A stretch of 64,000 nucleotides of DNA from Roseibacillus sp. (GTDB taxonomy: Bacteria; Verrucomicrobiota; Verrucomicrobiia; Verrucomicrobiales; Akkermansiaceae): contig JBPOGI010000002.1 in NCBI GenBank assembly GCA_051251855.1, positions 288,001-352,000 on the forward strand, written 5' to 3'. Of this stretch, positions 22,035 through 38,075 are shown piece after piece (the stretch's first letter is position 1; each line of letters opens with the position of its first letter). A model generated the notes under the pieces. That model saw only the letters and a list, made by a program, of their open reading frames with translations, was not told the DNA's origin and did no database searches. A program made the position numbers and the translations under genes.

Positions 22035-25000
22035 CTAGACACGGTTTCCGAGGAATCCTCGTAACTTGGCTGCGAGGGTGGTGACGTGAGGTTCTTGGAA
22101 AATAGTGAGATGCTCGCCGGGAATGGTGATGACTTTAAGGTCGCCACGGACATAGCCTTCCCAGCCGAGGTGCGGCGGGTAGATGACGCCGTCGCCTTGG
22201 TCTTCGGCAGTGAAAAGCACGACATCGCCATCGTAGGCTTTGGGTGAGTAGCGTCTCATTGCTTTGTCGTGGGCTTCGCGCACGATGACCGTTTGGATCT
22301 TTGGCCCGACGTCCATGCCGGTAGAAGTTGCGACGCTGGCGGCGGCCTTCTCACTCTGGACCTTGAGCTTGTTCACTAATCCTTCGCCAAAGCGTCCGCT
22401 GAGCTTGCCTACGCGACCGACCCAAGACCTATCCGAGTTTTCCGACCATTGGCGGGAGGCGCGTTCAGCAAGGGAGAGGTAGCGTGGAGCCACTGAGGGA
22501 TTGTCGGTGTCGAAGAGGCAGAGGAGTTCAACTTCGTCACCGGCTGCCTTGAGTTGCTGTGCGATTTCGTAGACTACAATGCCACCGAAGCAATAGCCAC
22601 CTAACAGGTAGGGACCTTCTGCTTGTACAGTTTTGATTTGCTTGAGGTAGGTCTTGGCCGTTTCTTCGATGGTGGGAGCAACATCTCCTTCTCCTGAGAG
22701 AGCGGGTGCTTCAAGGGTGTAGAAGGGCCTGTCCTTGGCCAAGCCATCGGAAAGCTGGCGATAAATGAGGGTGCCTCCATCGCCGCCGTGGATGCAGAAT
22801 AGAGGGGATTTTTCGCCCTTCTTGTGAAGAGCCGTGAGGCTGGCCGGAGTCGCTTCGACTGGCTCGCGTGGGGCGAAGCGGGCGGCGAGTTGTTCGATGG
22901 TGGGAGCTTCGAACAAAGTCGAGAGGGGGAGCTTCTTTCCGAACTCTTTGTCGATTTGATTGAAGAGCTTGAGCGCTTGAAGGGAGTGGCCTCCGAGGTC
23001 GAAGAAGGATCGATTAACGGGAAGGTCCGCGGTGCCGAGGACTTTACTCCAAATGGCGGCCATGCGCGTTTCGGTTTCGCCTTGCGGAGCGCGCTCGGAT
23101 TCTTGCGCTGGGGCGTCGTAGCTTTCGAGTTGAAGAAGGGCGCGGTCATCGACTTTGCCGTTTTCGGTAACGGGAATGGTTTCGACGAGAACGATGCGGG
23201 AAGGGATGAGGTGACCCGGCAAGAAAGACTGCAGAAAGATCTTGGCATCAGCCTCGGTGAGGTCGGTGTCTTGAGATGTGAGGTAGGCTACGAGAGTTTT
23301 CTCCTCGGCGTTTTCCCCTTGAGCGACCACGCGTGCTTGGGTGACGTCATGGTGACGGCAAAGCGCTTCTTCGATTTCAGCAGGGTCGATGCGGAAGCCT
23401 CGGATTTTGACTTCGTTGTCGGTTCGGCCCAAGAATTCGATGACGCCGTCGGGGCGATAACGAGCGCGGTCACCAGTGCGGTAGAGCTTGCTGTCGTTCT
23501 CGGATGAGAAGGGGTTGTCAATGAAGCGCTCGGCAGTGAGGGCCTCGTTCTGATAATAGCCGCGTGCCAGTCCATCGCCACCGATGTAGAGCTCACCCTC
23601 GGACATGGGAGGGAGTGGGTTGAACTGTTTGTCTAACAGGTAGACTTCGGTGTTTGAGATGGGTTTGCCAATTGGGACGGAGGCGTTTTCCAGATCGGCG
23701 GATGTGATGGTGTGACAGCAGGTGAAGGTGGTGTTCTCGGTAGGCCCGTAACCGTTGATAAGCTTGAGGTTCGGTAACTGGTTAAGAACTTTGGCAACGT
23801 GATGCTTGGAGAGTACGTCTCCACCGGCGAGGAGTTGCTTGAGGGGGCGGAGTACTTCGAGGTTCTCGTCGACCATGAGTTGAAAGAGTCCTGATGTGAG
23901 CCATAGCGTCGAGATGTCGTAGTCGCGAATGTGACTGGCGATGGTGTCGAGGCTAGGTGCGCCGGGTGGCAAGAGGACGAGCTTGCCGCCATTCAGGAGG
24001 GGAGCCCAAATCTCGAAGGTAGAAGCGTCGAAGGAAAGGGAGGAGGCTTGGAGGTAGACTTGGTTCTCGTCGAGTTGAGCGTAGTTGGTATTGCGAACCA
24101 ATCGTACGATGCCGCGATGAGTGACTTCGACTCCCTTAGCATTGCCGGTAGACCCTGAAGTGAACATCAGGTAGGCGAGGTCGGTGGGGCCGTTTTTGAG
24201 AGGGAGGTTCGAGGTTCCGCTGTCGTTGGCGTCTTCGTCATTGAGAACTTCATCAACGGAGATGACTTTTCCTGAGAAGGACGTGACTTGCTCCTGATAA
24301 TTGGAACGAGTCAAGAGCACGGGCGCGTCGGTCTGGTCCAAGAGGCTGGTGATCCGCTCAACGGGGTAGCAGGGGTCAATAGGAAGGTAGGCTCCTCCTG
24401 CTTTCATCACTGCAAGAGCGGAAATAATGAAGTCGAAGGACCGATCCAGCACGACCGGGATAGGCTGGCTGGCTTTTACGCCGGCTTCGCGAAGTTGAAC
24501 CGCGAGGCGATTGGCAAGGCGGTTGAGAGTTTGGTAGCTCATCGACCAGTCGCGCATTTGGAGGGCGGTTCGCTCAGGGTAGGTGGCGGCGACTTCTTCA
24601 AAGAGTTGCTGCACTGTCGAGGTGCGAGGATAGTCCGTGGTGTTGTTGGCGGACAAGGGGAGCGGGCGTCCCATGGTCTCAGGCGCGGGGGCGGGGAGCT
24701 CTTTACGAGTGGGTCCCTCGGGCTTGTTCGCTATTTCTTCGAGGATTCCGCGATATTGCTTCATCCAGCTTTCGACGGTGCTGTGCTCGAAGACCGCGGT
24801 ATTGAAGTGGCACTCGATACTGACTCCGTTTTTGGATTCAACGAGGTTGAGGAAGAGAAGTTGGTTGACGAAAGACTTCGGGCTATCAAGGAACTCGGTT
24901 TCGAGTCCGTCGAAGGGTTTAAAGTAGTCCATGCGCTCGAGGTTGAAGCCAACTTCGGTCAAGGGCATGCGGCCGGGACGGCGTTGCAGTTGAAGCTTGG

Positions 25001-28000
25001 GGACGAGTTGACCGTAGGTGCAGTCTTGATGCTCGTAGGCTTCGAGAACGCGAGAAGCGATGTCTTTGACGAGTTCGCTGAAGGGTTGGCTCGGTGCGAC
25101 CTTGGCGCGGAGAGGGAGAAAGTTGACGCAGTGACCGACGAGGTTCTCCAAGCCTTGGGAGGACTGCCCAGCGGCGGGGATGCCGATGACGAGGTCTCCT
25201 TGACCGGTGAGGCGGTTGAGGAGAATGCTAAATGCGCTCAGGGTGGTTGCGTAAAGAGTAGCCCCTGATTTGGCTCCAGCTTTGCGTAGCTTCTTCAGAA
25301 GGTCGGCATCGATGTTCTCGTGCAAAGTTGAGCCTGAGAAGGTGCGGTGATTAGGGAAAGGACGGTCTGTTGGGAGATTGAGGAGGGGGACGGTGTCGGG
25401 ATACTGTGAGACCCAGTAGTCGAGATGCGGGTCAGGAGTGTTGGACTGTTCGCGCTCGGCGCGGGCTAAGGCGTAGTTGGCGAAGCTCGCAGAGGGGGTG
25501 AGGGGATTGCTTTGTCCTTGGGAGAAGGCGTTGTAGCAATCGCTCAGGTTTTCGATGAGGACGTTAAAAGACCAACCGTCAGCCACCATATGGTGAGCGG
25601 TGAGGAAGAGGATGTGGCGGGTTTCGCTCACTTTGCTTAGCTTGGCTCGCACGAGGGGAGCTTTATCGAGATCGAACGGAGTGAAGGCCTGAGTCTGAGT
25701 GGCGAGACGGATGGCTTCTGCTTTGTCGTCTTCCGAGAAGGAGCTAATGTCGCGGAACTTGAAGGGGACTTGGACCTTGTCTGCGATTTCCCAAGTGTTG
25801 CCATCGAGGTCGAAGGTGGAGCGCAGGGCGTCGTGGTGATTGACGGCGGTGTTGAGTGCTTTTTCGAGAGCGGAACTGTCGAGGGGGCCGTCGAAGATAA
25901 GTGAGGTCGCTTCGTTGAAGGCGCAGGAAGCTTCGTGACCGAGTTGGCAGGCTAGCCAGATTTCCTGCTGGGCTTCGGTGAGCGGAAGTTCGGTGTGCTT
26001 CTTAGGTGCTGCAGGAGGGGCAACAGGGGCTGGAACTGGGAGAGGCTGGGCGGTGCCTTTTCCGAGGCGGGGAGAGGGACCGGTGAGCTGAGGCTCGCTG
26101 TTGATCTTGAGAGCTTCGGTCTCTTTGAGAAAGCCTGCCGCTTGCAGTTCGGCCACCGCCTCTTTAAAGGCACGAATGACATAGTCGATGTCCTCGTCGG
26201 TGTGGGTGGTGGTGATGTAGGAGGGGAAGCCTTCGAGGATGAAGACACCACGCTTGCGAAGGTGGAAGAAGAGAAGGTTGCCGTATTTGCAGTCCTCGCC
26301 GACTCGCACGAAGAAGCGGGAGTTGAGACCGGGGAGGCGGATGGAGACTTCATTGTCGACCATGAATTGGTCCACCGTCTTGTAGAGTCGCTCCGCCTTG
26401 GCATTGAGGTCAGCCCAGAGTTGCGGACCTTGCGCCTTGAGATGGGTGAGGACTGCGTGGGCAGCAGCGATGCCGAGGGGGTGGCGGACGAAGGTGCCTG
26501 CGAAGAAGGTGACGTCGCCTTCGGGGAAAGAGTCGTCGCCGTATTCCCAATGGCCACCGTCGAAGGTGTCCATGTATTTGGCTTTGCCGGCCACGATGCC
26601 GATGGGAAGTCCGCCGCCGATGACTTTGCCGTAGGTGGAGATGTCTGACTTGACGCCGTAGAAGCCTTGCGCGCCATGAGGGCCGTCGCGGAGTCCGCAA
26701 ATGACTTCGTCGAAGATGAGGAGAGCGTCGTTGTCGTCGGCGAGGGTGCGGAGTTCTTTAACGAATTCCTTGGGCTGGAACTCGGGGCGGCGACTTTGCA
26801 CGGGCTCAATCATGATGGCCGCGAGCTCGTGGGCGTGCTCTTTGAGAATCTCCATTGATTCTTCAGTGCCGTAGTCGAGCACGAGCATGTTAGAAACCGC
26901 GGACTTGGGCACGCCGGGCGCGCTGGGGAAGGTGCGGGGTTTCTTCTTGGCTTGGGAGCCACGGAGTAGGACTTCGTCGAAATTACCGTGGTAGTCTTTG
27001 GTGAAGACTGCGATTTTGTCTCGTCCGGTAGCAGTTCGTGCGAGGCGCATGGCGGCTTGGACCGCTTCGGAACCAGTGCAGACGAAGGAGCAACGCTCGT
27101 TGCCAGTCATCTCGCAGAACATTTGCGCGGTTTCGCCAGCGAGAGGGGTTTGGGGACCGACTTCGTAGCCGGACATCATCTGCTTTTGTACTGCTTCTAG
27201 AACGAAATCAGGAGAGTGGCCGAAGAAGCCGGGGCCAAAGCCGTTGAGGATGTCGATGTATTCGTTGCCATCGATGTCGAGGAGGCGGGAGCCTTTCGAT
27301 TGCTCGACCACGAGCTGGTAGATCATTTCTTTCCAGTTGCGATCGAATCCGGAGACGGTGCGTGGGTCGGCGTGGAAGCGGCGATACTTGGCGGTCCATT
27401 CTTTGGAAGATTTGGTGCGGGCCACGTAGCTGTTGACGAGTTGCTCGATGTGCTCGCGCTGTTGGGCGGTGAGGCTGTCGTCGGCATCTCGGCTGATGGT
27501 TGTGGTGGAGCCAGAGGCGGTGCCGGAAGTAGGTTTGTTTTCCTTAGCTTTCGAGGGCTGCGCAGTCGCAGAAGGAGAAGGGACGGCGGGGATTTGGGCG
27601 GCTGCGGGCTGGGGGGGAGGAGTAGGAGCCGCGGGGGTAGCGGGAATGCCTGCGAGCATCTGCATTTGAGCCTGCATGAACTGCATTTGCTGCATCTGCA
27701 TGTTCATCATTTGGGCCATCATGCCGGCTTGGTCGCCGCCGGGAGCGACCGTAGTGGTCGGGAAAGGTTGCTGAAGTGCTGGTTGCTGCAGTGCGGCTTG
27801 GGGAGCCTGTTCGGCGGGTGCTTCGACGGCGGGTGCTGCAGGTTGGAACTGGGAGGGGTCGGCTTCGTTGTCGAGATGGTTCACGATGTCGCCGATGGTG
27901 GGGAGTTCGGCGAGGAGCTGACGCATGGTGGTGGTCACACCAAAGGCTTTTTCGATTTCTTTGCTCACTTGGGTGAGCATGAGGGAGTCGAAACCAAGCT

Positions 28001-31000
28001 CAATGAGAGTGGCTTCGAATTCCATTTCTTCGGTTTCGATTCCGGAGAGGTCGTTGAGAACTTCACAAAGGCGTTCGTGAATCAAAGGCTTGCGATCAGT
28101 GGACATAACAGTGGGAACAGTTTGGTTGGGGACAGGGGAGGTGACCGCGACCGGCTGGGGAGCGGCTGGAGCGGCGAGAGTTTGGGGCGCTTGGGGGAGA
28201 GAAGGGAGTTCGGCAGCGAGAGACTTGGGTTCGATCCAGAATCGCTTGCGTTCGAAGGGATAGGTGGGAAGAGGAACGCGCTTGCGGACTTCGTCGCCAT
28301 TGTAGGCCTTCCAGTCTATGGTGTGGCCATGAATCCAAAGCTGTCCGAGGGCGAGCTGGAAGTGAAGCGCATCCGAGGCGTCGTCGGTGGCGTGGCCAGA
28401 GACCGAGAAGATGGCTTGTTTTGCCTTTTTGTCCGCGACCTGGCGGGAAAGGGTGGAAAGAGTTTGTCCGGGGCCGACCTCTAACAAGGTGGTCTCGGGA
28501 GATTCGCAGAAGTGTCCAGCAGCTTGGGTGAAGCGGACGGTCTTGCGCACGTGGGAAGCCCAGTAGTGCGAATCGGTGGCTTGTTCGTCGCTGAGCCATT
28601 CAGTGGTGACAGTGGAGCGGATGGGGATGGAAGGAGGATTGAGCTGAGCCTTTTCGATGACCTTTTGGAAGGGCTCGATAACTCCGTCCATCATCCAGCT
28701 GTGGAATCCGTGGGAGGTGTGGAGAGGTTTGGCTGCGATGTCTTGTTCAGTGAGAAGGGCGGTGAACTTTTCGAGTTCGTCGTGTGGTCCTGCAACGACG
28801 CAGAGTTCGGGGCCGTTGACGGCGGCGAGGTCGAGTTTTTCGGGGATGAGGGGAGTGAGCTTTTCTTCGCACAAGCGGACGGAGAGCATGCCGCCTTTTT
28901 CGACCGCTTGCATGAGAGCGCCGCGTTGGGCGAGAATGCTGAGGGCGTCTTCGAGAGAGAGGATGCCTGAGATGGTGGCGGCGACGAGTTCACCGACACT
29001 GTGGCCGACAAGGGCGGTGGGCTGGAGACCCCAGTGCATGAGGAGTCGGGCTTGGCAGTAGCTGAGGACAAAGATGGCGGGCTGGGCCATGATGGTCTGC
29101 TTGATGCGGAGGCCGGCGGCTTCTTGATCGGCATCGGGGTTTGGGAAAAGGGTGTCGCGGAGGTCCTCGCCGAGATGTGGTAAAAGGATTTCGGCGCAGC
29201 GGTCGAGTTCGGCGCGGAAGTAGGGCTCGGACTGATAAAGGTCGCGGCCCATGCCGACGGTTTGGGAACCTTGGCCGGGAAACATGAAGACGAGCGGGGC
29301 GTCAGCTTGTTTGGGAGTGCCTTTAACGGAGCGCGCTTTGTCGAGAGAGAGCAGGGAGTCGCTGACGAGGATTTGGCGCTTGGCGAAGTGTTTACGACCG
29401 ATGCGTAAGGTGTGGGCGACGTCGGCGGGGTTTGTGGAGCTATTGTTTGCGCCGTAGTTGACGAAGTTTTCTTTGGCTTGAGCGAGGGCTTCGTCGCTGC
29501 GAGCGGAGAGGGGAAAGAATTGGAAGGGGCGCAGAGAGGTAGAAGACTCCTGTTCGGGAGGCTCTTCTAAGATGACGTGAGCATTGGTGCCGCCGACACC
29601 GAAGGACGAGATGCCTGCGCGACGAGGAGCGTCTTTGGGATGCCAGTCGGTCAGGCTATCGTTGACGTGGAAGGGAGAGCTGGCGAAGTCGATTTTGGGA
29701 TTCGCTTTTTGAAAGTGGAGAGTGGCGGGGATCTTTCCGTGTTCGAGGGAAAAGGCGGTTTTGATGGTAGCGGTGACACCGGAGGCGATATCGAGGTGGC
29801 CAACGGTGGGTTTGACGGAGCCAAGAGCACAGCCCTGGTTGTGGGTCACACCGAGGTCGCGAAAGGCTTTGGTGAGACCAGCGACCTCGATGGGGTCGCC
29901 GAGGGGGGTGCCGGTGCCGTGGGCTTCGACGTAGGAAATGGTGGAGGGGTCGATGCCGGCGTCGGCGATGGCGTCTTTGATGACTCCGGCTTGGCCATCG
30001 ATGCTAGGGGCGGTGTAAGAGTGCTTGCGACCGCCGTCGTTGTTGAGGGCGCAGCCTTTGATGATCGCATGGATGTGATCGCCATCGCGCAGAGCGTCGT
30101 CGAGACGCTTGAGAAGCACGATGCCGGCGCCGTTAGAGAAAACAGTGCCAGTGGCTTGTTCGTCGAAGGTGCGGCAATGGCCGTCTTGGGATAGGATGCC
30201 GTCGGGGGTGAAGTAGTAGCCTTTTTTCTCGGGGAGAGTGATGGTGATTCCTCCCGCCATGGCCATGTCGCAGGCGTTAGCGCGCAGGCTTTGGCAGGCA
30301 GTGGAGATGGCGACGAGGGAAGTGGAGCAGGCGGTCTGCACCGTCATGGCGGGGCCGCGCAAGTTGAGCTTAAAGGCGACGCGGGTTGCGAGGTAGTCTT
30401 TGTCGTTGCCTAGCTCGGCTTGTAGGGTGCCGACTTGGATTTGGGGAATCCAGTCGGCGAGGAATTCGCGGTCGGTAGCGAGATTGGAAAGGGCGTAGGT
30501 GTCGAGGTAGTTGCCGGCCCAGAGCCCAATCTTGCCTTCGTACTCTTCGGAATTGTAACCGGCGTCTTCGAGGCAGTCCCAAGCGAGTTCGAGGAAGACT
30601 CGATGCTGGGGATCCATGAGCTTGGCTTCGTTGGGGAGGACTCCGAAGAACTTGGCGTCGAAGTTCTCGACGTTTTCCATGAGGCCTTTAACTGGCACGT
30701 AGCCGGGGTCGTTGCGGACTTTGGCAGGGTCAACGTTAGCGGAGAGGAGTTCTTCGTCGGTGAGTTGAGTGAGGCACTCTTTGCCGTCGACAAGATTTTG
30801 CCAGAAGGCTTGCACGTTGGGGGACTCGGGAAGGCGGCAAGACATGCCGACAATGGCGATGTCACGGCTTTGGTCGTTGTCCTTGGCTGGGGATGTTTGT
30901 TCGGCGGGAGCTTGTTCTTGCTCGGTTAGAAGCTTGGCTTGGGTGGCGACGGTCGAGTTTTGGAAAAGCTCTGCTGCGGTGAGAGGCTTTTGGAAATAGC

Positions 31001-32960
31001 GATTCAGTTTGGCGAGCAGTTGAATGACCTGAAGGGATTTTCCGCCGAGGTCAGCAAAGCGGTCGTGGCGACCGATAGGTGAGAGATGAAGGACTTCGGT
31101 CCAAAGTGAGGCGATTGCTTTCTCAGTTTCGCCTTGAGGGGACGTGAAAAGTTCCGAGAGCTCGGGGCGGCTCGCTGCTTGGGCGCGAATGTCGCTCGTG
31201 ATTTTGTCGACAGAAGAGCGCATCGCGATAGTGCGGTAGTCCTCTGAGGAAACGAGATTGGTGGCGTATTTGGAAGAGCTGCTTTGTGAGGGGGTGGGGC
31301 TTGCTTTGGCTGCAGGTCGCTGGGTTGCGGATTGGGCGACTTTGAGAGGAAAGCGATAGATGATTTCGTTACCAGCAGATTGAGCGTGTTTGCTTCCGAT
31401 GCCGTCGAGAAAGCCTCTGGCTGGGGTGTTGCGGTCGGTGGGAAGGAAGGGGAAGTGGATTTCGGTAGCCTCTGTTTGCTTCGCACTCTTGACTAACTGA
31501 GCGAGGATTTTTTGCTCTACTCCTTTGCCAAGAACGCGGCAACTTAGGAGGAAGGAGTCGACGTGAAGAGCTTCGTCTTTGGTTTCGAAAACGACCAATC
31601 CTACAAGCCCGTAGTCACCAAAGCGGTCACTAACTTTGACCGCGAGAATCTCTTTGCCGTTTTGCGAAAGAGAGGTCACTTCGTCTTCTTGGCGACGAAT
31701 GGTGGTGGTGTTGAACTGGTTGGTGCGCTGAGTAAGCTGAGCCAACCGGCTTTTGTTCTCCGAGGTGAGACCTTCGAAGCGAACCTTGAGCTTGAGTTCT
31801 TGTAGGAACGTTTCGTAGCTGGTGGCTTGCTCGCGGACTTCTTCGCGGGCGAGCATGGTCTGATACATCGCAGTACGTTGACTGTCTTCCTTGGTAGAAG
31901 AGTTCGGGAGGTCCAAGCGCCAGTGATGCTTAAGCAGGGTGGGGAATTTCTCGGTGTCTTGGGGAAGGAGAATGGTAGTGACCGTGGGGAGGGCGGCGGC
32001 CACTTCGGCGATTTCCATGGGGTTGTCGTCGATGAAGACAAAGGAATCGAGGGCGAGATTGAGCTGCTCGGCGAGGGCGGCGATATTTTTGGACTTAGCC
32101 TCCCAGTTGACTTTCCAGCCCACGATGTCTTCTTCGCGAAGAATCATGCCGGAATTCTTTTGGAAAACCTCGCGAACGTCGCTCTCTTCGTTTTTGGAGG
32201 CGAGACAGAGAATCATTCCAGCATCCATGCGTGACTTGAGGAAGTATTGCAGAGCTGCGTAAGGTTTAGTTATTTCGAGTTGTTCGGCGCCAATTTCGGC
32301 TGCGACTCCGGGCCAGAGGGTGGAATCGGCATCGACGACGAGGACTTTGGCGGGAGGAACGAGAGTGGCGTGAATCCGCCGCGCGATGAGGGTGGCGAGA
32401 GCATGGAAGTAGTCGTCGCGGTAGGGGAGGTGACCTTCTTGATCGGCGATGGGATCGAGGATGTCTTCGACTGGGTAGGAGCTGAGGAGCTTTTTCTCAG
32501 AGACGATTTGAAGCTTTAGCGTGCGGCATTGTTCGACAATCTCCGTGGAGAGCTCTTGGACGAATGCTGCGAGGACGGGGTCTAGGGCGATGCCTTCCGA
32601 AGGCTCTGTGAGAATGATGAGGTATCGTGAAGGAGTGGGGCTGGCTTGGGAGCGCAGAATGTCGAGGAACTCGCGAGTGTTCTTGCGGAGCTCCTCCTTC
32701 CATTCGGATGAGCCGAGCTCCCCAAAGCGCTGCCAGTCCTCGGGACGAAGGAGAATAAGGTTGAGGCCGTTTTCGTTGCGATGGAAGGGGGAGTTGGGGT
32801 CGAGAAGGCTTTGAAAAACTTGGTTGTAGGGAGCGTAATTGATGTCCGCTGGGAGATGGAGGCGCTTGAACCAGTGGTTGAGGGCAGGGGTGAGCGGCTC
32901 TGCGGTGAAGGTGGCCGAGATTTCGAGAGAATATCGGGAGCTGGAGGGGGATAGGCTCAT
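22035..32960 (-). CDS. Hybrid PKS/NRPS: FkbH-ACP-KS-AT-ACP-aminotransferase(III)-C-A-PCP-TE
   Basis: FkbH: DADSTLW, FIDDNP, QRTNQFN, LLSCRV. ACP: LGGKSL. KS: TACS, HGTGT, GHL. AT: GHSVG, HGFH. ACP: GFDSL. AMT: FDEV, GKVIGGG. C: HHMVADG. A: TSGSTG, YGPTE, YRTGD. PCP: GGHSL. TE: GYCFG. Confidence 0.96.
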   Translation of the reverse strand: MSLSPSSSRYSLEISATFTAEPLTPALNHWFKRLHLPADINYAPYNQVFQSLLDPNSPFHRNENGLNLILLRPEDWQRFGELGSSEWKEELRKNTREFLDILRSQASPTPSRYLIILTEPSEGIALDPVLAAFVQELSTEIVEQCRTLKLQIVSEKKLLSSYPVEDILDPIADQEGHLPYRDDYFHALATLIARRIHATLVPPAKVLVVDADSTLWPGVAAEIGAEQLEITKPYAALQYFLKSRMDAGMILCLASKNEESDVREVFQKNSGMILREEDIVGWKVNWEAKSKNIAALAEQLNLALDSFVFIDDNPMEIAEVAAALPTVTTILLPQDTEKFPTLLKHHWRLDLPNSSTKEDSQRTAMYQTMLAREEVREQATSYETFLQELKLKVRFEGLTSENKSRLAQLTQRTNQFNTTTIRRQEDEVTSLSQNGKEILAVKVSDRFGDYGLVGLVVFETKDEALHVDSFLLSCRVLGKGVEQKILAQLVKSAKQTEATEIHFPFLPTDRNTPARGFLDGIGSKHAQSAGNEIIYRFPLKVAQSATQRPAAKASPTPSQSSSSKYATNLVSSEDYRTIAMRSSVDKITSDIRAQAASRPELSELFTSPQGETEKAIASLWTEVLHLSPIGRHDRFADLGGKSLQVIQLLAKLNRYFQKPLTAAELFQNSTVATQAKLLTEQEQAPAEQTSPAKDNDQSRDIAIVGMSCRLPESPNVQAFWQNLVDGKECLTQLTDEELLSANVDPAKVRNDPGYVPVKGLMENVENFDAKFFGVLPNEAKLMDPQHRVFLELAWDCLEDAGYNSEEYEGKIGLWAGNYLDTYALSNLATDREFLADWIPQIQVGTLQAELGNDKDYLATRVAFKLNLRGPAMTVQTACSTSLVAISTACQSLRANACDMAMAGGITITLPEKKGYYFTPDGILSQDGHCRTFDEQATGTVFSNGAGIVLLKRLDDALRDGDHIHAIIKGCALNNDGGRKHSYTAPSIDGQAGVIKDAIADAGIDPSTISYVEAHGTGTPLGDPIEVAGLTKAFRDLGVTHNQGCALGSVKPTVGHLDIASGVTATIKTAFSLEHGKIPATLHFQKANPKIDFASSPFHVNDSLTDWHPKDAPRRAGISSFGVGGTNAHVILEEPPEQESSTSLRPFQFFPLSARSDEALAQAKENFVNYGANNSSTNPADVAHTLRIGRKHFAKRQILVSDSLLSLDKARSVKGTPKQADAPLVFMFPGQGSQTVGMGRDLYQSEPYFRAELDRCAEILLPHLGEDLRDTLFPNPDADQEAAGLRIKQTIMAQPAIFVLSYCQARLLMHWGLQPTALVGHSVGELVAATISGILSLEDALSILAQRGALMQAVEKGGMLSVRLCEEKLTPLIPEKLDLAAVNGPELCVVAGPHDELEKFTALLTEQDIAAKPLHTSHGFHSWMMDGVIEPFQKVIEKAQLNPPSIPIRSTVTTEWLSDEQATDSHYWASHVRKTVRFTQAAGHFCESPETTLLEVGPGQTLSTLSRQVADKKAKQAIFSVSGHATDDASDALHFQLALGQLWIHGHTIDWKAYNGDEVRKRVPLPTYPFERKRFWIEPKSLAAELPSLPQAPQTLAAPAAPQPVAVTSPVPNQTVPTVMSTDRKPLIHERLCEVLNDLSGIETEEMEFEATLIELGFDSLMLTQVSKEIEKAFGVTTTMRQLLAELPTIGDIVNHLDNEADPSQFQPAAPAVEAPAEQAPQAALQQPALQQPFPTTTVAPGGDQAGMMAQMMNMQMQQMQFMQAQMQMLAGIPATPAAPTPPPQPAAAQIPAVPSPSATAQPSKAKENKPTSGTASGSTTTISRDADDSLTAQQREHIEQLVNSYVARTKSSKEWTAKYRRFHADPRTVSGFDRNWKEMIYQLVVEQSKGSRLLDIDGNEYIDILNGFGPGFFGHSPDFVLEAVQKQMMSGYEVGPQTPLAGETAQMFCEMTGNERCSFVCTGSEAVQAAMRLARTATGRDKIAVFTKDYHGNFDEVLLRGSQAKKKPRTFPSAPGVPKSAVSNMLVLDYGTEESMEILKEHAHELAAIMIEPVQSRRPEFQPKEFVKELRTLADDNDALLIFDEVICGLRDGPHGAQGFYGVKSDISTYGKVIGGGLPIGIVAGKAKYMDTFDGGHWEYGDDSFPEGDVTFFAGTFVRHPLGIAAAHAVLTHLKAQGPQLWADLNAKAERLYKTVDQFMVDNEVSIRLPGLNSRFFVRVGEDCKYGNLLFFHLRKRGVFILEGFPSYITTTHTDEDIDYVIRAFKEAVAELQAAGFLKETEALKINSEPQLTGPSPRLGKGTAQPLPVPAPVAPPAAPKKHTELPLTEAQQEIWLACQLGHEASCAFNEATSLIFDGPLDSSALEKALNTAVNHHDALRSTFDLDGNTWEIADKVQVPFKFRDISSFSEDDKAEAIRLATQTQAFTPFDLDKAPLVRAKLSKVSETRHILFLTAHHMVADGWSFNVLIENLSDCYNAFSQGQSNPLTPSASFANYALARAEREQSNTPDPHLDYWVSQYPDTVPLLNLPTDRPFPNHRTFSGSTLHENIDADLLKKLRKAGAKSGATLYATTLSAFSILLNRLTGQGDLVIGIPAAGQSSQGLENLVGHCVNFLPLRAKVAPSQPFSELVKDIASRVLEAYEHQDCTYGQLVPKLQLQRRPGRMPLTEVGFNLERMDYFKPFDGLETEFLDSPKSFVNQLLFLNLVESKNGVSIECHFNTAVFEHSTVESWMKQYRGILEEIANKPEGPTRKELPAPAPETMGRPLPLSANNTTDYPRTSTVQQLFEEVAATYPERTALQMRDWSMSYQTLNRLANRLAVQLREAGVKASQPIPVVLDRSFDFIISALAVMKAGGAYLPIDPCYPVERITSLLDQTDAPVLLTRSNYQEQVTSFSGKVISVDEVLNDEDANDSGTSNLPLKNGPTDLAYLMFTSGSTGNAKGVEVTHRGIVRLVRNTNYAQLDENQVYLQASSLSFDASTFEIWAPLLNGGKLVLLPPGAPSLDTIASHIRDYDISTLWLTSGLFQLMVDENLEVLRPLKQLLAGGDVLSKHHVAKVLNQLPNLKLINGYGPTENTTFTCCHTITSADLENASVPIGKPISNTEVYLLDKQFNPLPPMSEGELYIGGDGLARGYYQNEALTAERFIDNPFSSENDSKLYRTGDRARYRPDGVIEFLGRTDNEVKIRGFRIDPAEIEEALCRHHDVTQARVVAQGENAEEKTLVAYLTSQDTDLTEADAKIFLQSFLPGHLIPSRIVLVETIPVTENGKVDDRALLQLESYDAPAQESERAPQGETETRMAAIWSKVLGTADLPVNRSFFDLGGHSLQALKLFNQIDKEFGKKLPLSTLFEAPTIEQLAARFAPREPVEATPASLTALHKKGEKSPLFCIHGGDGGTLIYRQLSDGLAKDRPFYTLEAPALSGEGDVAPTIEETAKTYLKQIKTVQAEGPYLLGGYCFGGIVVYEIAQQLKAAGDEVELLCLFDTDNPSVAPRYLSLAERASRQWSENSDRSWVGRVGKLSGRFGEGLVNKLKVQSEKAAASVATSTGMDVGPKIQTVIVREAHDKAMRRYSPKAYDGDVVLFTAEDQGDGVIYPPHLGWEGYVRGDLKVITIPGEHLTIFQEPHVTTLAAKLRGFLGNRV

Positions 32961-32963
32961 GAA

Positions 32964-33755
32964 CTAGAGGATGTTTTGGACGCCGATGTTGACGGGATCG
33001 TGGCGATCATTACTGGCAGGGAAGTCTTGCCGCCATTTTCGGACAGAGGCGAGGTCGAGAGGTGCGGAAAGGATTTCGACGGAACCACTGCCCTCTGCGA
33101 GTACTTCGCCTTTGGGATCGACGATGAGAGAGCAGCCAGGGAAGTCGAGATTCGGATCGGAACCCACGCGATTGACGCCGATAACGTAGGCTTGGTTCTC
33201 GATGGCGCGTGCTTTAAGCAGGGTGACCCAGTGTTCGACGCGAGGAGTAGGCCAATTGGCGAGGACGATGAGAAGCTCGGCAGCAGGAGTGGCGAGGCGA
33301 AAAATTTCGGGGAAGCGTAGATCGTAGCAGACGAAGGGAGCGAGGGTCCAGTCGCCGAGCGGCATCGTTTTGACCCAAGAACCAAAAGAGCCAGCATCTT
33401 TCTCACCAGAGGGGGTGAAAGGGTGGATTTTGGCATAATCGCCGACTACTTTCCCAGATGAGTCGATGAGGATGGCCTCGTTGGTGAGGAGATTTTCACG
33501 ATTGGAGACCATTCCGGCTATGATTGCGGCTTGGTATTTTTGGGCGATTTTGGAGAGAAAATCGAGTGTGGGTGAGTTGGCCGGGGTTTCAGCAATCTTT
33601 GCGAAATCCATGCTGAATCCTGTCGCAAACATCTCAGGGAGAACGATTAAGGAGTTTGGTTCAATTTTTTGGCCAGACAGTAGGTTCTCCAAGATCTCGA
33701 AGTTCGAGGCCTTGTCTTCCCAAATGGGATTAAGCTGACAGCAGTATACGCGCAC
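32964..33755 (-). CDS. Carbon-nitrogen hydrolase (omega-amidase/YafV/Nit2-like)
   Basis: E-K-C triad: LPEMF, YAKIHPF, VCYDLRFPE; ARAIENQ. Ends 3 nt before the megasynthase ATG. Confidence 0.92.
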   Translation of the reverse strand: MRVYCCQLNPIWEDKASNFEILENLLSGQKIEPNSLIVLPEMFATGFSMDFAKIAETPANSPTLDFLSKIAQKYQAAIIAGMVSNRENLLTNEAILIDSSGKVVGDYAKIHPFTPSGEKDAGSFGSWVKTMPLGDWTLAPFVCYDLRFPEIFRLATPAAELLIVLANWPTPRVEHWVTLLKARAIENQAYVIGVNRVGSDPNLDFPGCSLIVDPKGEVLAEGSGSVEILSAPLDLASVRKWRQDFPASNDRHDPVNIGVQNIL

Positions 33756-33818: not shown

Positions 33819-33913
33819 TGAGTGTTTTTTGAAGCGAGCCCTGTCAGCGAGGAAGGCAGGTGTCAGAAGGGGCTCTCAGAATAGTGAGTTTAGCTCTCTC
33901 TAAGTTATTCGTG

Positions 33914-34597
33914 CTAAGCTAAATGAAGCGTCGAATGGTGCAACTTGGGTTCGTGGGAAAGGTTGGGAAATTCTTCCCAATAGTTCCATGCGATTTCGGT
34001 GTCGGTGACCTTGAGATATGAGCGAGACCATGTCTGAGCGTCGGGTCGGTTCATGCGTACGGTGAAGGCGGAAAGAGGGGTCTGCTGGGGGTTCTGAAAG
34101 TTCTCAAGGTTGTTGCTTTCTTGAAATGCTTTTTGGCGAGCGGCTCTTACCTTTTCGAAACAAAAGGAGGAGCTGGTGACCGGAATCTGAGGTTGGAACG
34201 TGTTCAAGGTTTTCCCGCTCCAGCTAAAGGCTGCGACCTTACCTTTCTGAAAGAAGACGAGGTCAAAAGGTTTGGCTCCGGAGCACTTGGCTGAGAAGTT
34301 TTCTCGGATACTCGCGAATGACTTACAATCTGCGAGTTCCGTGACAACAAGTCCTCTGCTTTTTGAAAAAAACTGGCCGCTTTCCTCGTGCCAGCGGTTG
34401 AGAAGACAGGCGACCAAGCCATGCTCGTTAGCCAGTATCCAAGTGCCGCCCGCCTCTGGGTCGGTGGGTGCCAGATAGCGGGTGCCATTTTCAGTTTTAC
34501 GAGCGCTGGGGGGCTCAGCTCGACGGCGTGTTTTCAGCTCGTCTCGATTAAAAAAGACTTCGAGGCTATCTTGGCCGCGCCAAGTGAGTGTACACAT
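33914..34597 (-). CDS. NRDE/TANGO2-family protein (Ntn-hydrolase-like)
   Basis: MCT start, FNRDE, GGTW and SRG motifs. Confidence 0.88.
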   Translation of the reverse strand: MCTLTWRGQDSLEVFFNRDELKTRRRAEPPSARKTENGTRYLAPTDPEAGGTWILANEHGLVACLLNRWHEESGQFFSKSRGLVVTELADCKSFASIRENFSAKCSGAKPFDLVFFQKGKVAAFSWSGKTLNTFQPQIPVTSSSFCFEKVRAARQKAFQESNNLENFQNPQQTPLSAFTVRMNRPDAQTWSRSYLKVTDTEIAWNYWEEFPNLSHEPKLHHSTLHLA

Positions 34598-34639
34598 TCT
34601 TTAAGGGGGAAGCCGTGTTTTGGCTTACCTTTGAGAGTA

Positions 34640-34903
34640 TTATTGAGCGAAGGGGTCTGCGACTTCCACTTTAGGAGCTTCCGCTTCTGGCTCTTCAGGT
34701 TCGCTTTTTTCGGTGTTGCCGACCGGCAACGCTGCGCCTGCTTTTCCTCATGTGCTCCCGCCCGGGGAGTTTCCAGAAGACATTCATGTAGAGACGCCCA
34801 TAGAAGGCAGAATCCACAACTGAGCAGCGAAATAGAGCCCGACGATAGCCACGAGGGCAAGAACGCCGGTGAGACTGCTTCCTCTTTGGTTCATTGTATT
34901 CAT
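34640..34903 (-). CDS. Candidate small membrane selenoprotein, 87 aa with two in-frame UGA (U40, U52)
   Basis: MNTMNQRGSSLTGVLALVAIVGLYFAAQLWILPSMGVST-U-MSSGNSPGGST-U-GKAGAALPVGNTEKSEPEEPEAEAPKVEVADPFAQ-TAA; a hairpin follows each TGA. Confidence 0.75.
34715..34730 (-). promoter_or_regulatory. SECIS-like hairpin for the second UGA (34748-34750)
   Basis: GUUGCC-GGUC-GGCAAC, starting 17 nt after the UGA; resembles the E. coli fdhF SECIS apical part GUUGC-AGGUCU-GCAC. Confidence 0.72.
34755..34769 (-). promoter_or_regulatory. SECIS-like hairpin for the first UGA (34784-34786)
   Basis: CUCCC-CGGGC-GGGAG, starting 14 nt after the UGA; G-rich apical loop. Confidence 0.6.
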
Positions 34904-34971
34904 CTCAGGTAGGATAGTCGGGATTCGAAATTATTCCCGTTAAAAGTGCGATCTAATTGTCTGGGAGGGAT

Positions 34972-35382
34972 TTAGGCCGATGCACACTTATTACATTTAA
35001 GGTCGAAGCTCCAAGAGCCTGCGCCTTTCCAAATTACAAAAATGGAGAGGGCAATGAGGAGGAGAGGCAGGGCTAAGGGTGGTTCATCAGCCCAATCGTA
35101 GACGAGGTGAGTGTAGGTTGCCATTCCCATGGCTGGAATGGTGAGAGCTGCACCCACTCTGGCAAAATAGCCGGATACGAGAAGTGCTCCTGCTAGGAGC
35201 TGGAGGACGGGGCCAACAATGGCATTGAGTTCGGGAAAGGGGACCCCAGCGCCTCGCAAGATGGGCTCCAGGGGAGCAATACCAATGAGATGCTGGCTGC
35301 TGATGGCTAGGAGGGGAACAGCGATGAGGATGCGCGCAATGGCGGCTGATTTCTGGTTGGTGGTTTGGGTAATCTGTTTCAT
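34972..35382 (-). CDS. DoxX-family membrane protein with C-terminal CxxC
   Basis: ARILIA, four TMs, GAGSWSFD motif; ends LKCNKCASA. Confidence 0.85.
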   Translation of the reverse strand: MKQITQTTNQKSAAIARILIAVPLLAISSQHLIGIAPLEPILRGAGVPFPELNAIVGPVLQLLAGALLVSGYFARVGAALTIPAMGMATYTHLVYDWADEPPLALPLLLIALSIFVIWKGAGSWSFDLKCNKCASA

Positions 35383-35483
35383 GTTCACAGGGAAGAAGCG
35401 CGAACTTGGGCCTTTATTCCTTCTAACCACTCAGGCCTTGCGAATTCCGTTCATTTCGGGCAGAGTGCTTTTATTACGTAGTT

Positions 35484-36953
35484 ATGGAAATTTTGATAAA
35501 CTTAATCGCCATTGTGGTGGTTGTCCTCTTGTTCAACTTCATGATCTTCATTCATGAACTGGGCCATTTTTTAGCTGCCAAGTGGCGGGGATTAGAAGTC
35601 GAGAAGTTCTATATTTGGTTCGGAAAACCTCTTTGGAAAAAAACGATTGGCGGAGTGGAGTATGGCATCGGAAGTATTCCCGCAGGGGGATATGTGGCCT
35701 TGCCGCAAATGGCACCAATGGAGGCGATTGAAGGAGGAGATTCCGAGCGACGAAAGCAGCTTCCTCCCATCAAGCCGATTGATAAAATTATCGTCGCGTT
35801 CGCGGGACCGCTTTTTAGTTTCCTACTGGCCTTTGCGGCTGCGTGTGCAGTCTGGGTGTTTGGTAAACCTGCGGATACGGTTCATTCAACAGTGGTTGGC
35901 TACATTCAGGAGGGCAGCCCAGCAGAAAAATCGGGTATTGAGCTTGGAGACAAGATCGTTGCAGTGGATGGAGAAAAGGTCGGGCGCTTTTTGGGAGGCT
36001 TGGATGGTCTGAGTGAAAAGATTATGCTCAGCAAGAACAAGTCGGTGGAGATCACGATCTTACGTGATGGTGTCGAGAAGACGGTGACCTCTACTTTTCT
36101 GGTTGATGATACTTCTTGGTGGCAGCGTCGCGCGATGCGTCGGATTGGGGTGAGCTATGCCGATCCGCTTGTTATCGAAAATATTGAGAAGGAGAGTCCC
36201 GCTGAGCGAGCTGGTTTTCAAAAGGGGGATATCGTGGAAACAATCAATGGAGTGAGAATTTATAGTGTCCCGCAGATGAGCGATTTGCTGAAGGCGAACA
36301 TCGGAAAGAACGTGAACCTAGTGGTGCAGCGGGCTGGGGAGGACGTGGCGATTACGGTTGATTCGGTAGTGCCCAATGACAAGGTGACGGGTAAGGCGCA
36401 TCCTGATGGCCGCGCCATGATCGGAGCAAGATTTGAAACAGCCTTCGACCTTTCCCTAGTGAAGCCAAGTCCGGGTGAACAGGTAAAGGAAGGTTTGTTG
36501 TTGATGTTGACGACCTTGCAAGCAATCACCGCCAAGAATTCTAACGTTGGGATTCAGCATCTGAGCGGACCAGTAGGAATCGGTCATGCCATGTTTGGAT
36601 TCATTCGCACCGACGAGGCCTTGCGGCGAATTCTGTGGTTCATGGTGGTGCTTAACATCAATCTCGCGATTATGAATATGCTGCCTCTTCCTGTCCTGGA
36701 TGGTGGACATATTGTGCTGGCGATTGGCGAGCAGATTATGGGGCGTCCTGTGCAGTTGCGTCTCCTTGAAATTATTCAGACTGGCTTCGTTGTCGTTCTA
36801 TTGACCCTCTTTGTTTACATTACGAGTAAGGATATCGGCGGGCTAATACCTGGAGCCAAGGAAGAGCCTTGGGGTGAAAGAGGAATCGTCTGGCCCATTT
36901 TGACACCGACTGAACCAGCTCTCAATGGAGAGCTTTCCCCTACGTCGGAATAA
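35484..36953 (+). CDS. rseP: RIP metalloprotease RseP (site-2 protease with two PDZ domains)
   Basis: HELGH, AGP, two SPAE.AG PDZ domains, NMLPLPVLDGGH. Confidence 0.95.
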   Translation: MEILINLIAIVVVVLLFNFMIFIHELGHFLAAKWRGLEVEKFYIWFGKPLWKKTIGGVEYGIGSIPAGGYVALPQMAPMEAIEGGDSERRKQLPPIKPIDKIIVAFAGPLFSFLLAFAAACAVWVFGKPADTVHSTVVGYIQEGSPAEKSGIELGDKIVAVDGEKVGRFLGGLDGLSEKIMLSKNKSVEITILRDGVEKTVTSTFLVDDTSWWQRRAMRRIGVSYADPLVIENIEKESPAERAGFQKGDIVETINGVRIYSVPQMSDLLKANIGKNVNLVVQRAGEDVAITVDSVVPNDKVTGKAHPDGRAMIGARFETAFDLSLVKPSPGEQVKEGLLLMLTTLQAITAKNSNVGIQHLSGPVGIGHAMFGFIRTDEALRRILWFMVVLNINLAIMNMLPLPVLDGGHIVLAIGEQIMGRPVQLRLLEIIQTGFVVVLLTLFVYITSKDIGGLIPGAKEEPWGERGIVWPILTPTEPALNGELSPTSE

Positions 36954-36977: not shown

Positions 36978-38075
36978 GTGAAACCAATTAAGCTTCTTCG
37001 GTCGCCCTCCTCTGTCAATGTGGCAAGGCTGGGTTTCCTCCTCCTTTGTCTTCTGACAGGCGTCGCCCTGCACTACGGTTTTGGCGTCGATAATACGGGA
37101 ACTGATCTTCTGTCTATGACCCAAGCATTAGCTGGGGCGCTCCTGGTGGCGGGAACATTGATTTGGGTCGAGTCCTTGATTCGGGATGTCTCTCTGCGTG
37201 AGTTTTCGACAGGAACCTTTGGTCTTGCGGTGGGCGTTTTTTGCGGATGGTTGCTCACTCAGCTGAAGGTGGAGGAGGTTCTGTTTAAGCTCATCGAAGT
37301 GAATAGCGGGGCAGATTCGCCTTATATGGATAGCAGTATCCAAGACCTGATAGCGCTGGCTTTTCGGGTGGTCTTCATCGGGGGGATGGGTTTCATTGCA
37401 TCTACTCTCGCGCTTCGCAGCGGCAAGGAGGATTTCGCGTTCGTGGTGCCCTATGTTCGCTTTCGACAGGACGGAACTTCGGGCGCTCCCATTATCGTGG
37501 ATCGTGAGGCAGTCTTGGACGGACGGATTGAGTCGGTGATGAGTTCTGGGTTTCTAGCTGGGCGTATTGTGGTGCCGCGCATGGTTCTGGATGATTTACA
37601 GGCAATGGTGGATTCGCCTGAGGCCCAAGATAAGCAGAGGGCGCAGAGAGCCTTGGATGCCTTGGCCCGTATGAAGGCTAATGGCGACTATCGTCTCACC
37701 GTGCATGAGCACCCTGCCAATACTTCTGCAGATGATCCGAAGAGCCAGTTAGTGCGTATTTCGCAAATGCTGGCAGGGCGTATTCTCACCGTGAGCGACG
37801 AGACTGCGAAAATCGCGGAAGTGCAAGGGGTCGATGTGCTCAACCTTCACGAGCTGGTCGAGGCCCTGAAGCCAAAGGTGATTGTCGGTCAGCAAGTGCG
37901 CCTAGCGCTCGTTCGTAGCGGGCGGGACGAGCATCAAGCGGTGGGATATTTAGCAGATGGAACCATGATTGTGGTCAATAATGCCGCTTCTCGGATGAAT
38001 AGCACTCAGGATGTGGTGGTGATTTCCAAGCTAGAGACTACCAGTGGTGAGATGGTGTTTGCTGAGTTGGCTTAG
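36978..38075 (+). CDS. Membrane PIN/TRAM-domain protein (YacL family)
   Basis: Four TMs, DGRI, VLNLHEL, QAVGYLADGTMIVV. Confidence 0.88.
   Translation: MKPIKLLRSPSSVNVARLGFLLLCLLTGVALHYGFGVDNTGTDLLSMTQALAGALLVAGTLIWVESLIRDVSLREFSTGTFGLAVGVFCGWLLTQLKVEEVLFKLIEVNSGADSPYMDSSIQDLIALAFRVVFIGGMGFIASTLALRSGKEDFAFVVPYVRFRQDGTSGAPIIVDREAVLDGRIESVMSSGFLAGRIVVPRMVLDDLQAMVDSPEAQDKQRAQRALDALARMKANGDYRLTVHEHPANTSADDPKSQLVRISQMLAGRILTVSDETAKIAEVQGVDVLNLHELVEALKPKVIVGQQVRLALVRSGRDEHQAVGYLADGTMIVVNNAASRMNSTQDVVVISKLETTSGEMVFAELA

Follow-up and report, generated by a model that had tools for sequence, protein, structure and literature searches.

Bacteria decode in-frame UGA codons as selenocysteine (Sec) by an established mechanism, in which SelB and a selenocysteine insertion sequence (SECIS) hairpin bring the Sec-tRNA(Sec) to the ribosome, and this insertion is inefficient. 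The SECIS of Escherichia coli fdhF has a bulged U in its upper stem and GGUC-like G and U in its apical loop, and the minimal E. coli element follows an 11-nt spacing rule. As far as the available part of PMC1088965 describes it, the bacterial SECIS is a hairpin just 3' of the UGA with a small apical loop and a conserved G. Prokaryotic selenoproteins with at most two or three Sec residues have been described (PMC13188914, 2026), and the multi-Sec families catalogued there include the metal-binding UxxU proteins (NF041115), TsoB with UxxxxU (NF045694), MbdU, the FmdB-family UxxU proteins and the selenobacteriocins (TIGR04081) (PMC13188914 Table 1). Here we describe a mini-gene with two in-frame UGA codons on the minus strand of a 64,000-nt stretch of Roseibacillus sp. 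DNA (contig JBPOGI010000002.1, positions 288,001 to 352,000; hereafter the window) and compare it with these systems.

We propose, with a probability of roughly 0.8, that positions 34640-34903 encode a membrane protein of 87 residues with a single helix, and that UGA40 as well as UGA52 is read as Sec; taken by itself, codon 40 is very probably a Sec codon. Judged from the comparative sequence data, the gene and the selenoprotein family to which it belongs are genuine. Recoding would follow the classical bacterial mechanism, and the distinguishing features are the single-helix form and a tandem hairpin-plus-UGA cassette with up to four Sec. As in fdhF-type elements, the hairpins of the family lie 9-19 nt after the UGA, in frame, and have a small G-containing apical loop. 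The loop of hairpin 2 is GGUC, and that of the selD hairpin of the same genome, AGGUCU, is the very loop quoted for fdhF in an earlier annotation of the window made by a model from the letters alone (the first-pass annotation). In contrast to fdhF, the stems in the mini-gene family are perfect helices of 5-8 bp with no bulge. Further differences are that the two elements stand back to back, with 4 nt between the end of hairpin 1 and the next UGA, and that the hairpins dictate conserved peptide motifs (SPGG, PVG, CSVEQ). With the catalogued multi-Sec selenoproteins the mini-protein shares more than one Sec per bacterial polypeptide and a presumed redox or metal-binding chalcogen pair, but its Sec residues are 11-12 positions apart, each with its own SECIS, in a single-helix membrane peptide, and one relative has four Sec as against two or three at most.

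The frame opens with ATG at 34903 and closes with TAA at 34640-34642, and its TGAs occupy codon 40 (34786-34784) and codon 52 (34750-34748). Its translation is MNTMNQRGSSLTGVLALVAIVGLYFAAQLWILPSMGVST-U-MSSGNSPGGST-U-GKAGAALPVGNTEKSEPEEPEAEAPKVEVADPFAQ, in which the Sec environment reads ...LPSMGVST-U-MSSGNSPGGST-U-GKAG..., and the 87-codon product contains no Cys. Ser-Thr, with ACA as the Thr codon, precedes each TGA, the Ser codon being TCT at one and AGC at the other. AlphaFold2, run on an alignment of 21 homologues, gave a single helix at residues 9-34 and disorder elsewhere, with a mean predicted local distance difference test score (pLDDT) of 61.6 and values of 82-87 across residues 11-30. 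The sequence details, together with the one helix and the spacing of the hairpins (14 and 17 nt after their TGAs), agree with the first-pass annotation. The TATCCT motif that it read as a promoter -10 box is indeed located 7 nt 5' of the ATG; the promoter role has no support, and a sigma-70 consensus scan of 34300-35600 returned 0 promoter-like sites. Among sequencing runs, four seawater-metagenome DNA runs contain the region 33900-35450 and are possibly its source data, and no RNA run is listed for it.

The source genome (4.96 Mb in 13 contigs, 95% complete) has selA (SelA E = 1.8e-112), selB (SelB wing domain E = 3.7e-15 in a 754-aa frame), selC (tRNA-Sec at 63.9 bits, above the Rfam gathering score) and selD (E = 2.3e-112). 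The selD frame has one in-frame TGA at the active site (SSCAG-U-ASK) and is itself a selenoprotein gene; it lies outside the window at G000:C7:93121-94050 (plus strand) and is followed by its own hairpin with the loop AGGUCU. Beside selA, at G000:C1:1811877-1812785 (plus strand), a thioredoxin-like frame with a hydrophobic N terminus contains VPG-U-GPC and has the hairpin CUUCG-GGUC-CGAAG 3' of its TGA; it is probably another selenoprotein of this genome. Since both hairpins are of the GGUC type, such loops are the local SECIS apex, exactly as in hairpin 2. Elsewhere TGA works as an ordinary stop, as the first-pass annotation had stated: in the window it terminates 7 of the 36 open reading frames (ORFs) that are 250 aa or longer, and in the genome 462 of the 2036 that reach 300 aa. 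The genetic code is therefore standard, and a changed code was rejected as an explanation of the mini-gene.

The window protein was used as a query against 61 related genomes with stops read through, which gave 20 clear matches, 19 with TGA at the first site and one (G025) with Cys in the form T-C-A-S-G-A-C. With one more divergent two-TGA member picked out by eye, 21 members could be aligned. The signature of the family is a hydrophobic helix followed by W-[IV]-L-P-x-x-G-[IV]-x-T-[U/C]-[ML]-S-G-x-C, where W, L, P, G and T are nearly invariant in the 21-member alignment and, together with C42 and C47, invariant in an alignment of the Cys forms; x-S-G-x-C follows the first TGA throughout the family. 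In the majority of members a single Sec is followed, five residues later, by a Cys. That Cys is missing from Roseibacillus and some Akkermansiaceae relatives, which have in its stead a second Sec, located 11-12 residues after the first. SelA was found in 30 of the 61 genomes, among them all 20 that have a TGA form, and was not found in the Cys-form genome G025 (96% complete). This co-occurrence is the pattern predicted by Sec decoding.

A species-wide scan, combining a pattern search with tblastn over one genome per prokaryotic species, gave 334 pattern matches and 233 confirmed loci, and in the 80 loci kept the first site is TGA in all 80. On the Verrucomicrobiota side the kept loci belong to Roseibacillus, Akkermansiaceae and Verrucomicrobiales, and on the planctomycete side to Pirellulaceae, Gemmataceae and Planctomycetaceae; others are from Candidatus Obscuribacter and other Melainabacteria (non-photosynthetic Cyanobacteria, Obscuribacterales), Acidobacteriota, Myxococcota, Spirochaetes and Syntrophales. 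Of 301 evenly sampled Planctomycetota genomes, 29 have the gene, each time with the in-frame TGA (29/29). Orthologues are also present in two cultured type strains, Roseibacillus persicicus KCTC 12988 and R. ishigakijimensis KCTC 12986 (loci L062 and L063).

With a profile hidden Markov model, 832 relatives were retrieved from 1.84 billion protein representatives, 29 of them at E <= 1e-10, and the residue at the Sec site was tallied for the best 150. It is Cys in 102 by the strict pattern and in 12 more by eye, where F, Y or V replaces W; 23 proteins end at the Thr just before the site, nine have W, one each has R, S and G, and one is aberrant. The 23 shortened entries are Sec forms cut by gene callers, the truncation that the first-pass annotation had foreseen, and the small proteins of the type LP..G.PTCMS with Cys at the first U that it mentioned are confirmed by the Cys homologues. 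For the entries with W, R, S or G the simplest explanation is that the caller translated TGA under another code. The Trp entries (P0007, P0010, P0044, P0057, P0064, P0084, P0094, P0121 and P0144) and the Gly entry (P0115) are probably hidden Sec forms from metagenomes to which callers applied codes 4 or 25. Ten database clusters were looked up, and 'hypothetical protein' was the sole name given by any source; the lone lead in the ESM Atlas was likewise an unnamed 'hypothetical protein' cluster (score 0.85).

A loosely SECIS-like hairpin follows 5,872 of the 175,628 TGA trinucleotides of the genome (3.3%), and a hairpin with a GGTC loop, a stem of 5 bp or more and matching spacing follows only 59 (0.034%). 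At these chance levels the sequence of the window is by itself suggestive, and the comparative data decide. The alignment for covariation was anchored by the loop sequence and not by pairing. GGTC occurs 12-30 nt downstream of 63 of 114 Sec-TGAs (94 distinct members), and in the 7-bp helix of these 63 sites 84.7% of the cells are paired as compared to 57.7 +/- 1.7% after shuffling, a value reached by 0 of 500 shuffles. Double-change cells number 121 (44.6 in the shuffled data), the covariation score is 0.748 (shuffled 0.206; best slid-partner control 0.21), and at five of the seven positions in the helix 3-5 types of pair are seen. The CGGGN class, to which hairpin 1 belongs, comprises 22 sites with 92.9% paired cells against 82.9% shuffled, 19 double-change cells against 7.0, and a score of 0.535 against 0.31 (best slid-partner control 0.29). 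Both classes are, on this comparative evidence, genuine RNA structures that are conserved and covarying. Further loop types in the family are AGGUG, (A)GUC(U), AGUU (in Planctomycetes), GGC and GGU, and all of them except AGUU contain GG or GU. Among single-Sec members the commonest arrangement is a 16-nt hairpin that begins 11 nt 3' of the UGA, in agreement with the spacing rule of the minimal E. coli element. A scan against Rfam gave chance-level matches alone (E at least 1.1), and we know of no bacterial SECIS model in Rfam.

The hairpins also leave their mark on the protein. The codons for L-P-V-G form the hairpin (C)CG-GUC-GG, those for S-P-G-G-S form UCC-CCG-GGC-GGG-AGC, and those for C-S-V-E-Q, in the commonest single-Sec forms, form UGC-UCG-GUC-GAG-CAG. 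Where a stem pair changes from C-G to U-A, the change is synonymous on one side and turns Gly into Glu on the other, indicating that the RNA shapes the protein. The PVG, SPGG and CSVEQ motifs are conserved only because the RNA must fold.

The second Sec codon belongs to a compact unit. It spans 36 nt (34783-34748), beginning with the codon that follows TGA40 and ending with TGA52, and is made up of a 14-nt spacer, a 15-nt hairpin, 4 nt and the TGA. In an uncultured Roseibacillus (G006) this unit is present three times in tandem, giving four in-frame TGAs and the peptide U-MSGGSSQSGST-U-GSASPSQSGST-U-GSTTNSQSGST-U-NSKSTSPVG; Tandem Repeats Finder reports a period of 36, 2.6 copies and 79% matches for the array. 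Each copy has its own hairpin, and a GGUC hairpin serves the last TGA. Forms with two U keep the second TGA as U-x11-U in Roseibacillus and as U-x10-U in an Akkermansiaceae clade. Sequence comparison suggests that the two-U form may be a mosaic, a CSPGE-type first module without its Cys followed by a PVG-type module. Each of the following comparisons put forward in the first-pass annotation, namely the presence of selA, selB, selC and selD, homologues with conserved TGAs and not TAA or TAG ends, many homologues with Cys aligned at the first U, in-frame conservation after both TGAs, and hairpins of both types that are conserved and covary (63 GGUC and 22 CGGGN sites), came out on the side of its two-Sec reading.

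Two variants of the family arrangement were observed. At L098 and L117 (Verrucomicrobiales metagenome-assembled genomes, MAGs) a distant in-frame TGA lies about 30-50 codons after the first U, within a conserved A-P-T-U-G-x-T-G-C-P-P just 5' of the stop and with its own hairpin, which is a third route to a second Sec in the family. At L134 (an uncultured bacterium MAG) six codons remain between the TGA and the end of the frame (U-M-R-D-G-C-K-stop), and the sole hairpin lies beyond the stop codon, possibly a bacterial SECIS located in the 3' untranslated region (UTR).

Table. Features of the mini-selenoprotein locus (window coordinates unless a locus is named)
Feature	Position	Strand	Remarks
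Mini-selenoprotein coding sequence (proposed)	34640..34903	-	87 codons + TAA, Sec at codons 40 and 52; homologues with same frame and TGAs
Hydrophobic helix, residues 9-34, predicted membrane anchor	34802..34879	-	AlphaFold2 helix H9-34; segment kept in all members
Signature W-I-L-P-S-M-G-V-S-T	34787..34816	-	just 5' of first Sec; conserved in family alignments
TGA codon 40, predicted first Sec	34784..34786	-	family-invariant site, Cys in Cys forms; homologues
SECIS hairpin 1, CUCCC-CGGGC-GGGAG	34755..34769	-	14 nt after TGA40, ends 4 nt before TGA52; encodes S-P-G-G-S
TGA codon 52, predicted second Sec	34748..34750	-	two-U forms in at least 11 further genomes; in-frame tail conserved
SECIS hairpin 2, GUUGCC-GGUC-GGCAAC	34715..34730	-	17 nt after TGA52; encodes conserved L-P-V-G
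C-terminal motif E-V-A-D-P-F-A-Q	34643..34666	-	ends acidic Pro-rich disordered tail; C terminus in 4 Roseibacillus genomes
DoxX-family membrane protein	34972..35430	-	directly upstream, 68-nt gap; PF07681 E = 4e-08
TANGO2/NRDE-family protein	33914..34597	-	directly downstream, 42-nt gap; PF05742 E = 1e-13
Four-TGA gene of G006	L016 (G006:C82) 1366-1671	-	tandem array 1444-1537

The mini-gene lies between a DoxX gene and a TANGO2/NRDE gene, the product of the latter having an invariant N-terminal Met-Cys (M1-C2). The DoxX arrangement is also found in G001, G006 and G025. Neighbours were counted at the 21 related loci and at the 80 kept loci, two sets that overlap in genomes: TANGO2 is downstream at 9 of 21 and 11 of 80, and DoxX upstream at 4 of 21. 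Among the 80, a truncated globin is directly upstream at 11, a CoA-disulfide-reductase-like flavoprotein with a rhodanese domain (CoADR-rhodanese) directly upstream on the same strand at 8 (Obscuribacterales, Planctomycetales and Pyrinomonadaceae), a TauE/SafE exporter adjacent at 10 and a SulP permease upstream at 4; an SQR-like flavoprotein, DUF1641, DsbD_N and AhpC are adjacent in single cases. Within 3 kb on either side at L081, L100, L106, L111, L114, L121 and L127, the mini-gene mostly stands directly downstream of the CoADR-rhodanese gene with gaps of about 70-120 nt, and a TauE/SafE exporter is often near such loci. In the 1.5-kb flanks of the 29 Planctomycetota loci the sole known neighbour label was CoADR-RHD, at one locus, and many loci of the family have unrelated neighbours.

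Beyond the TANGO2 gene, one ORF of 3641 aa at 22035-32960 (minus strand) encodes a hybrid polyketide synthase/non-ribosomal peptide synthetase (PKS/NRPS) in which ketosynthase (KS), acyltransferase (AT), aminotransferase, condensation, adenylation, carrier and thioesterase regions can be recognized by eye. A carbon-nitrogen hydrolase gene (32964-33755, minus strand) lies upstream of it, and the PKS/NRPS ORF is not kept beside the mini-gene in relatives. On the plus strand, at 36978-38075, a 365-aa membrane-anchored ORF with no Pfam match is conserved beside the RseP-like M50 protease in Roseibacillus; its weak NCBIfam match to an ATPase model (E = 5.5e-05) is far below the cut-off.

Several observations weigh against the proposal. 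In loop 1 (CGGGC), GG is not followed by U as it is in the GGUC type, and the related genomes in which TGA forms and SelA co-occur are not independent samples. Synonymous sites of the tail are nearly saturated and the tail is of low complexity (proportion of synonymous differences, pS, about 0.9); the ratio to it of nonsynonymous differences (pN/pS), which is 0.37-0.41 among the three closest genomes, rises to 0.5-1.2 in more distant pairs (G003, G005). Support from pN/pS for reading past TGA52 is therefore moderate. As regards function, the neighbourhood is not conserved family-wide, which makes functional inference weak, and the topology is ambiguous by K/R bias, with 118 of 247 members predicted C-in, 64 N-in and 65 tied.

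The tail matters most for a reading in which only UGA40 is Sec and UGA52 is the true stop of a 51-residue one-Sec peptide ending in Ser-Thr, with the GGUC hairpin as a 3' element, either a second long-range SECIS or a stability element. With Sec insertion inefficient, some ribosomes probably do terminate at UGA52, the evidence for a coding tail has the limits just given, and TGA is the genuine stop of the mini-gene in 6 of the 21 aligned relatives. However, UGA40 is already served by hairpin 1 at 14 nt, and the GGUC hairpin follows TGA52 by 17 nt, the same spacing as after the sole Sec codon of the relatives G016 and G009. The tail moreover stays in frame through indels in several genomes and keeps a conserved end before its TAA, TAG or TGA: EV[AE]DPF[ASG]Q (DPF-x-Q) in the four Roseibacillus genomes, where in-frame indels lie upstream of E-V-A-D-P-F-A-Q, and a KDQ-x-KK-like sequence in the other clade. 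The four-TGA relative, which repeats the unit three times in frame and then continues into a GGUC hairpin and further tail, also speaks for coding beyond the second TGA, and a stop at UGA52 is in our view unlikely. Ending the gene already at the first TGA would leave a 39-residue hydrophobic micro-protein and make all downstream conservation an RNA-level or accidental matter. This is exactly what gene callers give (the 39-aa ORF 34784-34903, and the 23 database entries among the best 150), but at least 114 of those 150 relatives continue through Cys into the conserved x-S-G-x-C, M-S-G-x-C also follows the TGA in Sec forms, TGA forms occur only in SelA genomes (20/20) and the hairpins covary, so this possibility is extremely slight.

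A different product is envisaged if the mini-gene is the precursor of a secreted or modified selenopeptide, similar to a ribosomally synthesized and post-translationally modified peptide (RiPP) or a bacteriocin, with the hydrophobic N terminus as leader or export signal. A small peptide with a conserved Cys/Sec core after a hydrophobic N-terminal segment would suit such a role, the PKS/NRPS ORF is 1.7 kb away, the DoxX family includes the RiPP-maturation subfamily HvfX (the match of the window DoxX protein is weak, E = 0.011 and 15.9 bits against a cut-off of 80), and a two-Sec 'selenobacteriocin' family has been catalogued (PMC13188914 Table 1). Yet no RiPP-modifying enzyme, peptidase/exporter pair or PKS/NRPS recurs at the 21 or the 80 loci, and the protein matches neither the selenobacteriocin model TIGR04081 nor any other NCBIfam model, which makes a RiPP-like precursor highly improbable. 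It can hardly be, finally, that the minus-strand frame is the shadow of a real plus-strand gene: a 174-codon ORF does exist at 34388-34912, but it overlaps both the mini-gene and the beginning of the TANGO2 gene, itself well supported, is reduced to 90 aa or absent in the closest relatives, and stands opposite to the strand that conservation, Cys/Sec pairing and hairpin polarity all fit.

The window protein has no match in Pfam (E <= 0.01) or in NCBIfam release 20 (E <= 1), and the 21 family members searched against both (E <= 1) gave isolated single-member chance matches only. No match was found to the models of the 119 catalogued prokaryotic selenoprotein families and subfamilies (PMC13188914 Table 1), a comparison that covers the families with a Pfam or NCBIfam model. 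The family is not described in the accessible parts of the deep-Sep, BSepDB and Haft preprint reports (PMC12013277, PMC13326102, 10.1101/2022.07.06.499078); Table S2 of BSepDB lies outside those parts and could list it. A literature search on bacterial selenoproteins and SECIS elements (Verrucomicrobia, Planctomycetes, single-pass or transmembrane) gave no description of the family, and one linking selenocysteine with DoxX, TANGO2 or NRDE found nothing. As far as could be found, this is the first bacterial single-helix membrane mini-selenoprotein.

The nearest likeness in architecture is to the eukaryotic SELENOS and SELENOK, which also have one N-terminal membrane helix and a disordered, charged tail rich in Gly, Pro and Ser that contains Sec. 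The selenenylsulfide between Sec188 and Cys174 proposed for SELENOS, as given in the available part of PMC3628699, resembles the Sec...Cys or Sec...Sec pair of the mini-protein family. However, no sequence relationship was detected, Sec in the mini-protein is beside the helix and not C-terminal, and the SECIS elements of SELENOS and SELENOK are in the 3' UTR whereas those of the mini-gene are in the coding region; a functional analogy can only be surmised. YeeE/YedE thiosulfate-transporter selenoproteins (PF04143) have the Sec motif G-U-x-S-G (PMC13188914 Table 1), and the mini-protein family likewise has U-x-S-G at the end of a membrane helix (T-U-M-S-G), with sulfur-handling neighbours in some relatives (TauE/SafE, SulP, CoADR-rhodanese). 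In contrast, it has no PF04143 match even at E <= 1 and has one helix instead of the many of a multi-pass transporter, so that this four-residue likeness is only a lead. From the CxxC/UxxC oxidoreductases of the thioredoxin fold the family differs in its U-x4-C or U-x11-U spacing, in the AlphaFold2 prediction of one helix with a disordered tail and in the lack of a thioredoxin-family Pfam match.

The comparisons above show that the gene exists, that it has recoding signals, that Sec and Cys alternate at the first site and how the family is distributed; our proposal for how the mini-gene works is as follows. Each UGA has its own SECIS inside the coding sequence, hairpin 1 (CGGGC) for UGA40 and hairpin 2 (GGUC) for UGA52, and each hairpin would recruit SelB and Sec-tRNA(Sec) to the ribosome paused at its UGA. 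Roseibacillus and some Akkermansiaceae relatives have lost the Cys five residues after the first Sec, and the second Sec is supplied by the 36-nt unit of spacer, hairpin and AGC-ACA-UGA, which has been amplified in one relative to give four predicted Sec codons. The two chalcogens would be placed at the membrane surface, where they could alternate between a selenol and a diselenide (or selenenylsulfide) state; another possibility is that they carry sulfane sulfur, selenium or a soft metal. Their partners may be membrane and cytoplasmic sulfur-redox proteins such as DoxX, CoA-disulfide-reductase/rhodanese proteins or TauE exporters.

The neighbours are recurrently concerned with sulfur, persulfide or thiol redox at the membrane, which favours a selenol/diselenide (or selenenylsulfide) relay or a chalcogen carrier. 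We tentatively assign the mini-protein to this class of function, that of a membrane-tethered Se-Se or Se-S redox or chalcogen-relay peptide. As to topology, N-in is predicted for the Roseibacillus forms, whose N tail is rich in K and R, and C-in for most Cys forms, where the N tail is short and Arg comes right before W-x-L-P. When the all-Cys homologue from G025 was modelled as a complex with the TANGO2 protein encoded beside it, the prediction scored 0.01 and carries no weight either way. A bolder and more doubtful idea is that the family may be a dedicated membrane-tethered chalcogen carrier and the 36-nt unit a self-contained, duplicable Sec-insertion cassette. Such a carrier would pass selenium or sulfane sulfur from membrane transporters or DoxX-type proteins to or from cytoplasmic persulfide reductases, and might be a bacterial functional counterpart of eukaryotic selenoproteins S and K.

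The finding would add to the known selenoproteins a widespread family which gene callers overlook and which is absent from the 119-family catalogue. Its two- and four-Sec variants bear on the packing limit of bacterial SECIS elements, with a hairpin ending 4 nt before the next UGA, and suggest that the unit can be amplified; they may be useful for the engineering of multi-Sec peptides and for studies of SelB processivity. If the 36-nt unit is indeed a self-contained cassette, poly-Sec peptides could be built in bacteria by simple tandem duplication.

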